Assembly (NCBI GenBank): GCA_039179045.1
Contig: JBCDEZ010000016.1
Coordinates: forward strand, 1-26,776
Source: Chlamydiota bacterium
GTDB lineage: Bacteria > Chlamydiota > Chlamydiia > Chlamydiales > SM23-39
Length of the DNA: 26,776 nt
Reading direction: 5' to 3'
The translations under genes were made by a program, and so were the position numbers. This document shows positions 7,901-14,721 of the stretch, in pieces. Within the stretch, counting starts at the first letter, position 1, and every line of letters begins with the position of its first letter. The notes below the pieces were generated by a model. That model made no database searches. It was given only the letters and a program-made list of their open reading frames with translations, and was not told where the DNA came from.

Positions 7901-9310
7901 TTATTGCTTTGTTTTGATGTCTTCTACCAGGAAACATTCCGCTAAATAAGACAAAATCTTTGGAGTAAGTGAACCTAAGATAATTCCAACGATTAGAAAT
8001 CCCGTATAGAAAAAATGGCTACCCACTTCGATATGTTTTGGCGGGATAAAACCCAAAATAAATGCACAAAAAGAAGTAAAAAAACCGATTCCGGCACAAA
8101 GGCACATGCCTATTTTTCCACCGGGCACAACAAAACTTCTAGGAATATCTGGCTGACAAAACTTCAAACGAATTGCGGCTGCAAACATGAGCATATACAT
8201 AAGAAGATAAAACTGCGTGGTAAGAGAAGTGAGCAACCAAAAAGAGCTGCTGACACTCGGCATAAAAAGGAATAGTAAAGATAAAAAAGTAACGATTATC
8301 CCTTGTAAGAGCATTAGGGCAGTGGGCATTCCGTTGCTGTTCGCTCCGTGCAAGTATACAGGCAAATCCCCATGGTTTGCTGCAGCCAATAATCCTCTAC
8401 TTGGACCTACAATCCAGGTGCTCATTTGCCCAAATGCCCCGATTGCAATCGCGATCGCAATCGGAGGAAGAAAGGCAGATAGGTTGTACGCTCCCAAAAA
8501 TAGGGCAATCGTATCTAACACCCCCGAGACAAAACTGATTTCCGATGGGGGAATAACCATAGCAATAGACAAAGTTCCTAACGCGCTAATGGAAAAAATA
8601 ATAAAACTCGATAGAAAAATCGCTCGAGGATAGTTTTTTTGTGGATCAATGACTTCTTTTGCATGTACAGCAGACATCTCTATTCCTGCAAAAGCAGTGA
8701 GTATTCCTGTAGCGAGAACAAGTTGGTTCAAACTATTGAGTTCTGGAAGAAAAGAACTCCTGGACAGCTCAATTTGTAAAGGAGCATTTGAAAGAAGCCA
8801 GTTCATTCCTAAAATAATGATCAGGAGTCCCGGTACAATTGTCCCAAAAACAACCCCAAAAGTACTGATTTGACTCGACATCTTCATACCTTTTAAATTC
8901 AACCAAGTAGCAAACCAAAATAGAGTTAAAATCATGACCAACATGTAGGTCTTATCTTGGGCAAGATCGGGGTAGAACGAAAATGCTGCCGTAGCCGCTA
9001 TAAAAGATAGCAATGTAGGGTACCAAGGAATGTTGGTTAACCATAAATACCAAATGGATAAAAAGCCTAATTGATGACCAAAGGCCTCTTTTATCCAGAC
9101 AAAAACACCACCTGATTCTGGCCAGCCTGTAGCAAGTTCTGCGGAAACAAACGCGATCGGCAGGAAAAAAAAGAGGCAAATGATCAACATCAGAAAAAGT
9201 GAAGAAAAACCATATGCCGCAGATAAAGGCCAATTACGGATACTACAGATAGCTGATATATTAATCATTACTAAAAGAAAAAGGCTAATTACCCTTGGTT
9301 TTTTTGTCAT
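7901..9310 (-). CDS. APC-family amino acid permease/antiporter (GadC-like)
   Basis: About 12 hydrophobic segments, VSAELATGWPESGGVFVWIKEAFG, FAGIEMSAVHA and PQKNYPRAI. ATGA overlap with the arginase gene. Confidence 0.9.
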   Translation of the reverse strand: MTKKPRVISLFLLVMINISAICSIRNWPLSAAYGFSSLFLMLIICLFFFLPIAFVSAELATGWPESGGVFVWIKEAFGHQLGFLSIWYLWLTNIPWYPTLLSFIAATAAFSFYPDLAQDKTYMLVMILTLFWFATWLNLKGMKMSSQISTFGVVFGTIVPGLLIIILGMNWLLSNAPLQIELSRSSFLPELNSLNQLVLATGILTAFAGIEMSAVHAKEVIDPQKNYPRAIFLSSFIIFSISALGTLSIAMVIPPSEISFVSGVLDTIALFLGAYNLSAFLPPIAIAIAIGAFGQMSTWIVGPSRGLLAAANHGDLPVYLHGANSNGMPTALMLLQGIIVTFLSLLFLFMPSVSSSFWLLTSLTTQFYLLMYMLMFAAAIRLKFCQPDIPRSFVVPGGKIGMCLCAGIGFFTSFCAFILGFIPPKHIEVGSHFFYTGFLIVGIILGSLTPKILSYLAECFLVEDIKTKQ

Positions 9311-10191
9311 ATACGTCCCACAATAGTTGGATAAACAGTTTCAATAATTTTTTGGATGGCATGAGCAGTCTTGCAACGAATATCTTTGAAAGGATTGTAT
9401 TCAACGATTTCCATAGCGATGAAATTACTCAAATTTTTTAAACCCTGCAACCCTTGCAAAAGATCATGTAATAAAATACCCGTGTGCACTGGCGTGCTTA
9501 CGCCCGGAGCGATTGAAGGATCTAGTACATCCATATCTAGGCTTACACCAAAAGCTTTGCGGTTTTTGACCATATGAGAAACAACGTCTCTCATAATTTC
9601 CCGGAATCCGGCTTTCAGCACCTCATCAATGAAGTAAATTCTTATTCCTAAATTTTTTAAAAAAGCATATTCGGGCGCCTCGTAAGAGCGTGTACCTATC
9701 AAATAAACAAATTTAGGATCAAGAGTATACCCAGAAACCAATTTTTTATCACCGTATCCTAAAAGAACTGCAAGAGGCATTCCGTGAATATTCCCGCTAT
9801 CTGATGTCTCAGGTGTATGGGCATCCATATGAGCATCTATCCATATTAAGCCAATGTTGTTATTTTTGGCTTCGGACACTCCTTGCCAAGTGCCAATCGC
9901 AACCGAATGATCACCGCCTAGAATTAGAGTCGGATTCTTACTCTGAAGAGCAGCCTGTATGCGCAAAGCGACATGACCGCAGAGTGATGAAATAGACGTA
10001 TAAGCACATTTCGATAAGTGTTCTTTCTGATGAATCATTGGATCCCATAGCAGGTGACCTTGTAGGTATTTTTTTAGAAATAAAGGGGCGTGGCTGCTCC
10101 CCCGAAGATTGCCTCCCATGGAAGAAGAAACGCCCAGAATACGTAAGAAGTCCGTATGAGTTCTTACCACTTCGTTCGATTCGATCACCAC
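9307..10191 (-). CDS. rocF: Arginase (ureohydrolase family)
   Basis: GGDHS, WIDAHMD, SGNIHGMP (arginase-specific), SLDMDVLDP and EIVEYNP. Confidence 0.9.
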   Translation of the reverse strand: MVIESNEVVRTHTDFLRILGVSSSMGGNLRGSSHAPLFLKKYLQGHLLWDPMIHQKEHLSKCAYTSISSLCGHVALRIQAALQSKNPTLILGGDHSVAIGTWQGVSEAKNNNIGLIWIDAHMDAHTPETSDSGNIHGMPLAVLLGYGDKKLVSGYTLDPKFVYLIGTRSYEAPEYAFLKNLGIRIYFIDEVLKAGFREIMRDVVSHMVKNRKAFGVSLDMDVLDPSIAPGVSTPVHTGILLHDLLQGLQGLKNLSNFIAMEIVEYNPFKDIRCKTAHAIQKIIETVYPTIVGRI

Positions 10192-13208: not shown

Positions 13209-14721
13209 GTAGTATCTCCTTGTTTGGAATCAATTTTTCTGCTGTTGGTTCCGCGTGTTTATAACCTAGTTTTCGAACGTGATTAGTTGTTCTTTTAATA
13301 GACGCATTCTCTTGTTTTTCTAAAGCAAACATAAACAAGACATCTGGCGGAAGTCCATAATCTATATCAAGCGTGTCATACAATTTTTCTGCTTTTTTTC
13401 TTACGATATCCAAGTAATCATCGTCAGACAAAATTCCTATGGGTAGGGAAAGCTGATGCTCATATGAACTGCCTTGAAAGTGTCGTACATACTCTTCAAT
13501 TGAATCATTTTTATTTTTGACCTGAATCAACTCTCGATGCGGTTTGAAGTACTGAAAGAATGGGGACGTGCAATCCTCTTCGGTATTCGTGATTAAGTCT
13601 GCCATGTATTGCGCCATAACAGGAGATTGATGAAATCCATCACGGTAAGTACCAGTCATAATGAATAAATTTTTGATTTTTGATGGGCCAATTAATGGAA
13701 AAGAATCGAGAGTAGCAGGCCTATTGCCCACGGAAAATCCTCGCATATACGAACTGCATAACTTCTGATCGATCTGTTCCAAAGAACATTCCATGAGAAA
13801 ATTGAACATACCCATTTTCGGATCTTTGTGAGGTGCAAAGGCCAAATCATTAGAAGCTCCTATGTAAAGAGAATTTCCTTCTCTAGGTAAAACGTGTAGT
13901 CCACAAGCACCTGCTCTGTTTGGAGTGCGGATTGCATGTGTAATGGGTTTGTTTTTATTTTGTTCCACCAAAATGGAATACCCAACACCAGACAATACCA
14001 TAGGCATGCTGTCACGCAGATCTGTCATTTTATCAATCAATGCTTGAGAAAAAGCTCCCGCTGCTAACAAAATTTTTTCTGAATGAATCACTTCACCTGT
14101 TTTCAAAATAAGGGACTTACAAGTTCCATTTTTGCAATCAATATTTTCCGCATGATCATTTACAAAATCCACATTATCCATTTTCCTAAGAATGGTTGTC
14201 ATAGAAGACAAAAGCTCATGGGAGGAAATACAACCCTCGCCCGGCACCCATATTGCGCGTAACGGTCTAGCATCGTGTACCGGATCAATTTCGCCAATTT
14301 CTTTGGGAAGAACCTCTTCGAATGGTTCACTATAAAGATTCAAGGCTTCAATAATGGCGAAAAAATTATCTGTATCCAATTCGCTAGAACGGTTGTTCAG
14401 CAATAAATACGTTCCCGGGTATATCCGCAATTTTTTTGCATCTGGTAAATAATTGTTGATGCTTTCCAGCCAAATAGGCCATTTCTTAAGAGCTTGATGA
14501 CACAGCGCAAATTTTGCCTGGCCAGGTGCGGTGGCAAGCGTCTGTGTTGTCACTTCTGAAAAACAATGCAACATTGCACCAGAAGAAATACTGGCACCAT
14601 TCTTATTCCCCCAGGGCCCTACAATCGCAATCCGAAATTTTGGAAATTTATTGCATAAGGCTAACGCAGTAGATAACCCCATGATACCATTACCAATGAT
14701 CGTTAAATCATAATTTTTCAT
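13189..14721 (-). CDS. FAD-dependent amino acid oxidase (DAO/ThiO-like) with C-terminal extension
   Basis: IIGNGIMG Rossmann motif, GASISSGAML, LLAAGAFS, GNRPATLDSFPLIG and TGTYRDGFHQSP. Confidence 0.85.
   Translation of the reverse strand: MKNYDLTIIGNGIMGLSTALALCNKFPKFRIAIVGPWGNKNGASISSGAMLHCFSEVTTQTLATAPGQAKFALCHQALKKWPIWLESINNYLPDAKKLRIYPGTYLLLNNRSSELDTDNFFAIIEALNLYSEPFEEVLPKEIGEIDPVHDARPLRAIWVPGEGCISSHELLSSMTTILRKMDNVDFVNDHAENIDCKNGTCKSLILKTGEVIHSEKILLAAGAFSQALIDKMTDLRDSMPMVLSGVGYSILVEQNKNKPITHAIRTPNRAGACGLHVLPREGNSLYIGASNDLAFAPHKDPKMGMFNFLMECSLEQIDQKLCSSYMRGFSVGNRPATLDSFPLIGPSKIKNLFIMTGTYRDGFHQSPVMAQYMADLITNTEEDCTSPFFQYFKPHRELIQVKNKNDSIEEYVRHFQGSSYEHQLSLPIGILSDDDYLDIVRKKAEKLYDTLDIDYGLPPDVLFMFALEKQENASIKRTTNHVRKLGYKHAEPTAEKLIPNKEILHECSIG

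Follow-up and report, generated by a model that had tools for sequence, protein, structure and literature searches.

What would a chlamydia-like bacterium make with an arginase, an amine N-hydroxylase, a flavin oxidase, a pyridoxal phosphate (PLP) enzyme, a cysteine-rich protein and a transporter, all encoded side by side? The question is raised by positions 7901-14721 of contig JBCDEZ010000016.1 (assembly GCA_039179045.1, Chlamydiota bacterium), whose 26,776 nucleotides, taken as a whole, are called the window here. As read from its genes, this operon is best explained as a route from arginine and glycine to a small metabolite that is nitrogen-rich and non-peptidic. The balance tips slightly toward its predicted arginase, N-hydroxylation and amidine-transfer steps working together in one biosynthetic pathway, whose product would most likely act on the eukaryotic host or on competitors.

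Enzymes of the operon and the pathway they may form

The oxidase gene (positions 13189-14721, minus strand; Pfam DAO) encodes a flavin adenine dinucleotide (FAD) enzyme of the Orf1/Fms14 type, 510 amino acids (aa) in length. Its top PDB matches are structures of N-formimidoyl fortimicin A synthase (E 2e-78, residues 5-468 of 510), whereas glycine oxidase is matched far more weakly (E 7e-15), with coverage ending at about residue 383; like Orf1 and Fms14, the protein has the fold of glycine oxidase and, beyond it, a C-terminal extension of about 100 residues. A generic DAO acting on hydroxy-ornithine, as the earlier note on this DNA proposed, is not borne out by these matches. Because the nearest structures are N-formimidoyl synthases, glycine is probably a second substrate, recruited by the oxidase.

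According to the available text of PMC10156733, Orf1 oxidises glycine, whose C2 and N then reach an amine by way of C281, and the residues that matter include R342, R368, H284, Y294, F316 and E426. With a 21-residue construct offset applied in the mapping, Orf1 C281, H284, Y294, F316, R342, R368 and E426 correspond to C273, H276, Y286, F308, R334, R360 and E421 of the oxidase. Since this catalytic set is retained, amidine transfer is favoured, and the enzyme probably supplies an amine with an amidine carbon taken from glycine. The acceptor appears to differ from that of Orf1, because the aminoglycoside acceptor residues E312/E313 are replaced by G304/M305. The E312A variant of Orf1 shifts the product toward an iminoacetyl form (PMC10156733, available text); given G304 at this position, the carboxyl may be retained in the group that the oxidase transfers. 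The three closest oxidases are identical to the window oxidase at 18 of 18 chosen pocket positions, and the string occurs in no other of 113 sequences. A role as the thiamin glycine oxidase ThiO was also considered and is unlikely, since the score with TIGR02352 is 91.8 bits against a cut-off of 250.8 and the genome, 88% complete, shows no match to ThiG, ThiF, ThiE or ThiD.

The hydroxylase gene (positions 10197-11486, minus strand; Pfam Lys_Orn_oxgnase, PF13434, E 5e-78) probably starts at ATG 11486, giving 429 aa, rather than at the alternative 11504, and encodes a flavin N-hydroxylase of the SidA/PvdA/KtzI family. In SidA, K107, N293 and N323 are ornithine ligands (PMC7347517, available text). 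The hydroxylase keeps the equivalents of these residues and of Q102 and F296, and carries N54 for I103, G398 for L467 and T400 for S469. We take I103 and L467 of SidA to line the side-chain pocket. Among 116 other homologues, N54 occurs in three, T400 in two and G398 in none, and all three changes are common to the three close orthologues, with which the window hydroxylase forms a clade (support 1.0). The pocket is accordingly predicted to be widened and more polar. Because the SidA ornithine ligands are kept and pocket residues altered, the substrate would be an amino acid resembling ornithine, perhaps one of greater bulk or polarity.

Ornithine could be supplied by the arginase (positions 9307-10191, minus strand; Pfam Arginase, chlamydial type), which contains the metal motifs GGDHS, DAHMD, SGNIHGMP and DMD, has bacterial arginases as its best PDB matches and scores 182 bits with TIGR01229 (cut-off 228). 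An arginase feeding an ornithine-type N-hydroxylase, as previously suggested, is supported. The host genome contains no detected orthologue of ornithine aminotransferase (best match 23-25%), ornithine cyclodeaminase or ornithine decarboxylase, and ornithine is therefore left without another detected sink. Similar arginases are found in 55 of 401 genomes of the phylum; at 29 other chlamydial arginase loci, the aminotransferase adjoins in seven, the cyclodeaminase in two and a Tyr/Trp-type permease in seven.

The PLP gene (positions 11946-13208, minus strand; Pfam Aminotran_5) encodes a 420-aa class V enzyme, probably of the Fgm3/UstD (TIGR01976-like) group. Its PDB matches are Fgm3 (E 5e-72), UstD (9e-44) and SufS (8e-34), and TIGR01976 is the top model at 279 bits, below its cut-off of 352. 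K230, D204, H127 and R397 are invariant in 13 aligned sequences. Desulfurases such as SufS and IscS carry a catalytic cysteine in a C-terminal loop with a GHHC-type motif. In the PLP enzyme, this loop reads ATNYHFYARR and holds no cysteine, and all desulfurase models score far under cut-off; cysteine desulfurase identity was thus rejected. A tyrosine stands two residues past the Schiff-base lysine, as in Fgm3 (UstD has phenylalanine), and probably equals Y225 of Fgm3. In the available text of 10.1101/2023.03.21.533663, Fgm3 is a hydroxy-arginine retro-aldolase with Y225 as putative base, and UstD is a decarboxylative aldolase. The resemblance to this Cbeta-Cgamma type gives no support to a decarboxylation that would yield the N-hydroxy-diamine suggested earlier as an example product. 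The sponge Sycon ciliatum carries two genes for close homologues of the PLP enzyme (40%; P0259 and P0421).

The Cys-rich gene (positions 11479-11949, minus strand) probably starts at 11949, from a database call of 156 aa; it belongs to no Pfam family and encodes a putative metal protein. Eight cysteines (C18, C23, C27, C28, C69, C77, C86 and C111), together with H55, E42, K82, D85 and Y89, are kept in 60-62 of 62 homologues, a set for which 78 of 80 loci were translated and 61 dereplicated sequences kept alongside the window protein. The nearest named Atlas cluster is YkgJ, whose score of 0.89 is a lead only; PF03692 (YkgJ/CxxCxxCC) is matched by 0 of 69 family members at E<=1, and NCBIfam yields two single weak matches alone. 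Two AlphaFold models (pLDDT, the predicted local distance difference test, 77 and 83.5) found no match in the PDB with Foldseek or in a viral structure library, and none in the wide VIA search, where the best Z values were 3.6 and 2.5; a PDB sequence-profile search likewise returned no match, which does not in itself imply a new fold. The protein is possibly a distant YkgJ/CxxCxxCC relative. Genes next to other family members include KamA-like radical SAM enzymes, PLP decarboxylases, ATP-grasp enzymes and histidine methyltransferases, and a putative accessory metal enzyme role fits because the homologues adjoin such varied amino acid-modifying genes.

Two further arrangements involve this family. 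A recurrent operon of PLP decarboxylase, PALP, Cys-rich, KamA-like radical SAM, agmatinase-like and ATP-grasp genes (L151, L152, L155, L156, L157 and L161) constitutes a second uncharacterised cluster that uses it, and at L097:10001-11143 a thymidylate-kinase-like domain is fused with a Cys-rich domain.

The transporter gene (positions 7901-9310, minus strand; Pfam AA_permease_2) encodes a GadC-like APC antiporter of 469 aa, which scores 453.7 bits with TIGR03813 (cut-off 650) and 421.5 bits with NF053662, also below cut-off. Two paralogues in the genome share 50% and 38% identity with it and have a GC content of 45-47%, versus 40% for the operon copy.

In the proposed pathway, the arginase, as its family and motifs indicate, would provide ornithine. 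The flavin monooxygenase would hydroxylate N5 of ornithine or of an N5-substituted or 4-hydroxy derivative, and the Orf1-type enzyme would oxidise glycine, with Cys273 handing on either formimidoyl (HC=NH) or its carboxy form, carboxy-formimidoyl, to what may be a side-chain nitrogen. These two steps, in either order, would lead to an N-hydroxyamidine of the N5-hydroxy-N5-formimidoyl-ornithine type, which would mimic arginine and also bind metal. The Fgm3/UstD-type enzyme would make or break a Cbeta-Cgamma bond, and the GadC-like antiporter would swap precursor for product. The preferred guess for the PLP step, speculative and of low probability, is C4 oxidation made possible by the Cys-rich metal protein, then retro-aldol cleavage to alanine and an amidino-acetaldehyde, with ring closure of the latter giving an (N-hydroxy)imidazole; the probability of any one final structure is similarly low. 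A more general proposal is put forward tentatively, as a possibility that falls well short of even: a rare but conserved core of Orf1-type amidine synthase, Fgm3/UstD-type PLP enzyme, eight-cysteine metalloenzyme and re-pocketed hydroxylase would build a new functional group, in a product directed at host arginine or metal metabolism. This group could be, for example, an N-hydroxyamidine, an N-hydroxyimidazole or an N-N bond, made without a nonribosomal peptide synthetase (NRPS), an NRPS-independent siderophore (NIS) synthetase, a cupin/MetRS enzyme or KtzT.

The partners that usually accompany such hydroxylases had been found missing from the window, and this absence extends to the genome, 88% complete, where searches whose controls matched detected no IucA/IucC, condensation domain, TonB receptor or KtzT-type FMN_bind_2 heme protein. 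A further search detected no cupin-MetRS fusion (a 24-25% match to the MetRS part alone, none to the cupin part). The genome holds two AMP-binding proteins.

Genomic setting and origin of the operon

The interval 7901-14721 is filled by six minus-strand open reading frames (ORFs), all intact, with intergenic gaps of -20, -4, -8, +5 and -4 nt when the revised starts are used; the earlier description of six same-strand genes with overlapping or near-abutting ends therefore holds. Operon GC is 39.8%, below the flanks on either side (48.7% and 47.0%) and below the value for the whole genome (46.3%), and 0 of 537 genome windows of 6.8 kb are as low; GC at third codon positions (GC3) of each operon gene lies within the lowest 6% of 647 long ORFs. 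The operon is contained in a low-GC island (positions 7732-14923, no strand assigned), bordered on one side by a TreS-like gene (5593-7731) and on the other by a HEAT-repeat gene of chlamydial type (14924-16588). The island is present in part in four of the five marine or plastisphere runs listed. Contigs from three further marine or plastisphere runs map on island and flanks, mostly at 95-99+% identity, and X2, from a separate study, touches 28 of 30 bins, mostly at 95-99%; the four runs compared in this way came from three studies. Because contigs of further runs cover both island and flanks, the operon is not an artefact of one assembly.

The six genes are a real, selected, horizontally acquired operon, in which the arginase and the transporter look like chlamydial-type additions onto a foreign four-gene core. 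The flanking HEAT protein is matched in both chlamydial genomes compared and in none of three proteobacterial ones, and the HEAT gene has different upstream neighbours in relatives G002, G004 and G012. The genome also contains a block that we take to be CdsV-CopN-Scc1. Judged by these markers, the host is chlamydial. The assignment to a small-molecule operon in a chlamydia-like organism is thus supported, with low GC pointing to horizontal acquisition beside a chlamydial flank.

Promoter and terminator scans gave chance-level results. A 13-nt exact direct repeat on either side of the island (7606-7618 and 14737-14749) was considered as a target-site duplication and rejected: its left copy sits within a conserved part of the TreS-like gene, a TreS homologue aligns past it, and the test windows had been picked after the repeat was spotted. 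A repeat of 13 nt or longer was reached in 7 of 3000 random placements.

Elsewhere in the window, the gene at 5593-7731 encodes a trehalose synthase TreS of the Pseudomonas stutzeri type (639 bits, cut-off 719) with a signal-peptide-like N-terminus. Positions 15-1622 encode a protein with a UCH-type ubiquitin hydrolase domain, likely a secreted effector, with a 26% identical orthologue in a same-genus genome. A low-GC ORF of 523 aa at 25137-26708 has no Pfam match, and its C-terminal half is endonuclease/exonuclease/phosphatase-like by eye.

Conservation in other genomes and competing explanations

Within the phylum, the core genes are rare. None of 60 relatives yielded an oxidase orthologue of full length, and four of them have 23-27% matches; the hydroxylase was matched in 2 of 400 other phylum genomes (27-28%) and 1 of 102 family genomes. 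The PLP enzyme at E<=1e-50 and the Cys profile were each found in 0 of 399 phylum genomes, with G065 left out of the scoring. In addition, 80 oxidase loci (of 302 matches, on genome contigs) and 80 Cys loci (of 88, on metagenome contigs) were compared, many of them short contigs. A ureohydrolase occurs at one oxidase locus, and the Cys loci include a distant ureohydrolase in 6 of 80 and the oxidase in 0 of 80. Viral contigs contained no hydroxylase locus and one unrelated Cys locus. No diverged operon copy was found in a plasmid search, in the order of G421 (3 genomes) or in five oxidase-bearing genomes; in the order of G420, 11 of 86 genomes have the hydroxylase, and none of these 11 loci has another operon gene. 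G041, where a weak oxidase lies 4 kb from an arginase, was rejected as an operon copy, being a thiamin operon.

Contig sizes suggest that the core nevertheless exists elsewhere. The three best hydroxylase homologues (44-45%; next 34%) lie on single contigs of 20924, 4232 and 38907 bp. The first two of these sizes recur, in the same order, for the contigs that carry the two best diverged Cys homologues (59% and 56%), and the third, 38907 bp, for that of the oxidase homologue ranked second (54%); sizes were available for 118 of 119 oxidase matches. Chance equality is about 5e-5 per pair, and the whole lists would be expected to give 0.09 and 0.65 matches. The three equal-size matches among the top three ranks are not chance. 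The label of orphan is only partly right, as the equal-size contigs suggest the core in other organisms.

Several gene arrangements around the oxidase were observed in the course of these comparisons. In 12 of 80 oxidase loci (L007, L008, L009, L024, L031, L035, L036, L037, L042, L046, L056 and L073), from Legionellales-, Holosporales- and Rickettsiales-type genomes, a sensor kinase of about 430 aa adjoins the oxidase, often with a response regulator of about 335 aa; five of six kinases scanned are nearest to the LuxN quorum-sensing model, far under its cut-off. This arrangement is similar to lqsA-lqsR-lqsS, the oxidase taking the place of the synthase, with a kinase and regulator that we assume to be LqsS- and LqsR-like. 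These loci may represent an undescribed autoinducer system; the available text of PMC8023197 mentions no oxidase. The Pirellulaceae loci L012-L032, of which L023:9989-14019 is an example, have a stand-alone monomodular NRPS-like gene of adenylation-thiolation-thioesterase (A-T-TE) type after the oxidase, sometimes with a GNAT gene, an arrangement that recurs across many marine metagenome-assembled genomes (MAGs) of the family. Another chlamydial MAG (L006:1-3761) carries a sister oxidase in a separate small cluster, where the next genes encode a 304-aa GNAT-like protein and a dioxygenase of the Asp/Arg beta-hydroxylase type.

One coupled pathway is favoured because the genes are coupled, GC and GC3 are uniformly low, no frame is broken and the ratio of nonsynonymous to synonymous polymorphism (pN/pS) indicates purifying selection. 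A considerable body of evidence weighs on the other side. The pN/pS values, 0.18 for 252 PLP codons and 0.21 for 156 Cys-protein codons against the 96.9% identical strain L086, rest on small counts. The co-occurrence check proposed earlier yielded its three equal-size contig pairs and, against these, no oxidase locus among 80 with a PLP, Cys, hydroxylase or transporter gene, and a single Cys locus among 80 with PLP and hydroxylase genes, that of the near-identical L086. Linkage in other organisms is judged from equal contig size; one chance equal-size match does occur (1633 bp, too short for both genes), and none of the top 10 PLP representatives lies on an equal-size contig, in a library clustered at 50%, where orthologues may hide behind representatives. 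The four-oxidase node has a support of just 0.12, inside a six-member clade at 0.997, and the Cys tree, at low support, does not group the window protein with P0002 and P0003 (the 59% and 56% homologues). The window's copies are the most divergent in their orthologue sets, as with the hydroxylase (43-44% versus 58-66% among the others). On the chemical side, the operon has no recognisable C4-hydroxylase for an Fgm3-type step, and import of arginine, as formerly proposed, is unsupported: the transporter exceeds 420 bits with the GadC models and reaches 37.2 bits with the arginine-ornithine antiporter (ArcD) model TIGR03810, whose cut-off is 591.

Other readings of the same genes must be set against this pathway. 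A catabolic or detoxifying operon, rather unlikely, would import a modified arginine such as gamma-hydroxyarginine through the antiporter, convert it with the arginase and an Fgm3-type retro-aldolase to alanine and an aldehyde, and use the flavoenzymes to dispose of by-products. The retro-aldol cleavage of hydroxy-arginine by Fgm3 (10.1101/2023.03.21.533663, available text) agrees with it, as do the two alphaproteobacterial plasmid loci inspected, both of which look catabolic in layout, an amidohydrolase and an ABC transporter for amino acids lying with the homologues. Against it, those relatives of the two flavoenzymes that have been characterised are biosynthetic, spending O2 and NADPH or glycine, and the Orf1 transfer cysteine is retained. 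Formation of an N-N bond, with the Cys-rich metal protein and the oxidase replacing the zinc cupin/MetRS synthetase and joining N5-hydroxy-ornithine to a glycine-derived nitrogen, is unlikely as well. Cupin and MetRS genes do adjoin the nearest readable hydroxylase relatives (the Bacillus plasmid, L198 and the chlamydial L183), and in this operon the Cys gene lies immediately before the hydroxylase, with which it probably occurs on two other contigs as well, but the operon lacks an aminoacyl-activating enzyme, the Cys protein matches neither cupin nor KtzT, and 79 of 80 Cys loci have no hydroxylase.

Compatible with the favoured chemistry, and quite unlikely, is a product that serves as a diffusible signal instead of a weapon or chelator; the kinases beside the oxidase in 12 of 80 loci, five of six nearest LuxN though far under cut-off, would suit a signal, yet those loci lack the other five genes and this genome has no LuxN-type kinase, its generic kinase match standing at E 1e-8 only. 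Equally low is the probability of a chance mosaic, in which separately acquired genes were collected at one site. Each family does occur independently in other contexts, and the arginase and transporter are chlamydial-type, in contrast to four foreign genes; starts and stops that overlap along the whole operon, low GC in all six genes, purifying selection and three equal-size contig pairs among diverged orthologues speak against a mosaic. Supply of a hydroxamate siderophore precursor is very improbable. It has in its favour that the hydroxylase family is mostly siderophore-associated (PMC7347517, available text) and that the genome contains a weak Acetyltransf_8 match, but this protein scores far better as a generic GNAT, and IucA/C, condensation domain and TonB receptor are missing.

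Known systems and biological meaning

Parts of the operon resemble characterised systems. The oxidase shares with Orf1 and Fms14 the full length, the C-terminal extension, the glycine site and the nitrogen-oxygen-sulfur (NOS)-bridge residues; it differs at the G/M acceptor site, and no aminoglycoside genes accompany it. Fgm3 (fusaoctaxin) and UstD (ustiloxin) are the top structural homologues of the PLP enzyme and likewise lack the desulfurase cysteine, whereas the PLP enzyme is bacterial and has no P450 or amidohydrolase partner, the roles of Fgm1 and Fgm2 beside Fgm3. Compared with SidA, PvdA and KtzI, the hydroxylase retains the five active-site equivalents listed above and differs by I103N, L467G and S469T and by an operon without NRPS, NIS synthetase, acyl/formyl transferase or KtzT. 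Among cupin/MetRS hydrazine-synthetase clusters, which include the s56-p1 type, the closest readable architecture is that of a plasmid cluster of Bacillus toyonensis with rocF. It sets a precedent for an arginase immediately next to a related N-hydroxylase and also contains a FAD oxidoreductase and a transporter, but has a cupin and MetRS and lacks the Orf1-type, PLP and Cys genes; the operon here has those three and lacks cupin, MetRS, ATP-grasp and GNAT. In Photorhabdus, the operon plu3567-3561 begins with an Fms14-like gene and also encodes a PLP enzyme and a transporter; it differs by p-aminophenylalanine-type genes and a class II aminotransferase, and the available text of PMC2422844 lists no hydroxylase, arginase or Cys protein.

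Two other chlamydial N-hydroxylase clusters were observed: L183:4767-13359, with KamA-like radical SAM, DAO, cupin-MetRS (hydrazine-synthetase type) and pre-ATP-grasp genes, and L182:9608-20000, adjoining a 2402-aa NRPS-like ORF.

The available text of PMC13755311 lists KtzT, hydrazine synthetases and NRPSs as routes from N-hydroxy-ornithine and does not contain 'arginase', 'PLP' or 'glycine oxidase'. Biosynthetic gene clusters are widespread in chlamydiae (PMC9666466); the available main text of that study does not contain 'arginase', 'ornithine', 'monooxygenase' or 'formimidoyl', and its supplements could list such a cluster. No description of the six-gene combination was found in the literature searched, largely outside subscription journals. 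The operon consists of enzymes from established families together with a member of one unnamed family, and this set of genes matches no pathway found.

As a compact 6.8-kb, expression-ready candidate pathway, the operon pairs glycine-derived formimidoyl transfer with amine N-hydroxylation, both of them rare chemistries, a pairing not found in the literature or in readable genome loci. It also gives the unnamed eight-cysteine protein family its first testable function. If the proposed pathway is correct, it would be a chlamydial secondary-metabolite cluster without NRPS or polyketide synthase (PKS) signature genes, and would bear on the chemical means by which environmental chlamydiae influence their hosts. 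On the more tentative general proposal above, an obligate intracellular chlamydia would turn its product on host arginine or metal metabolism.

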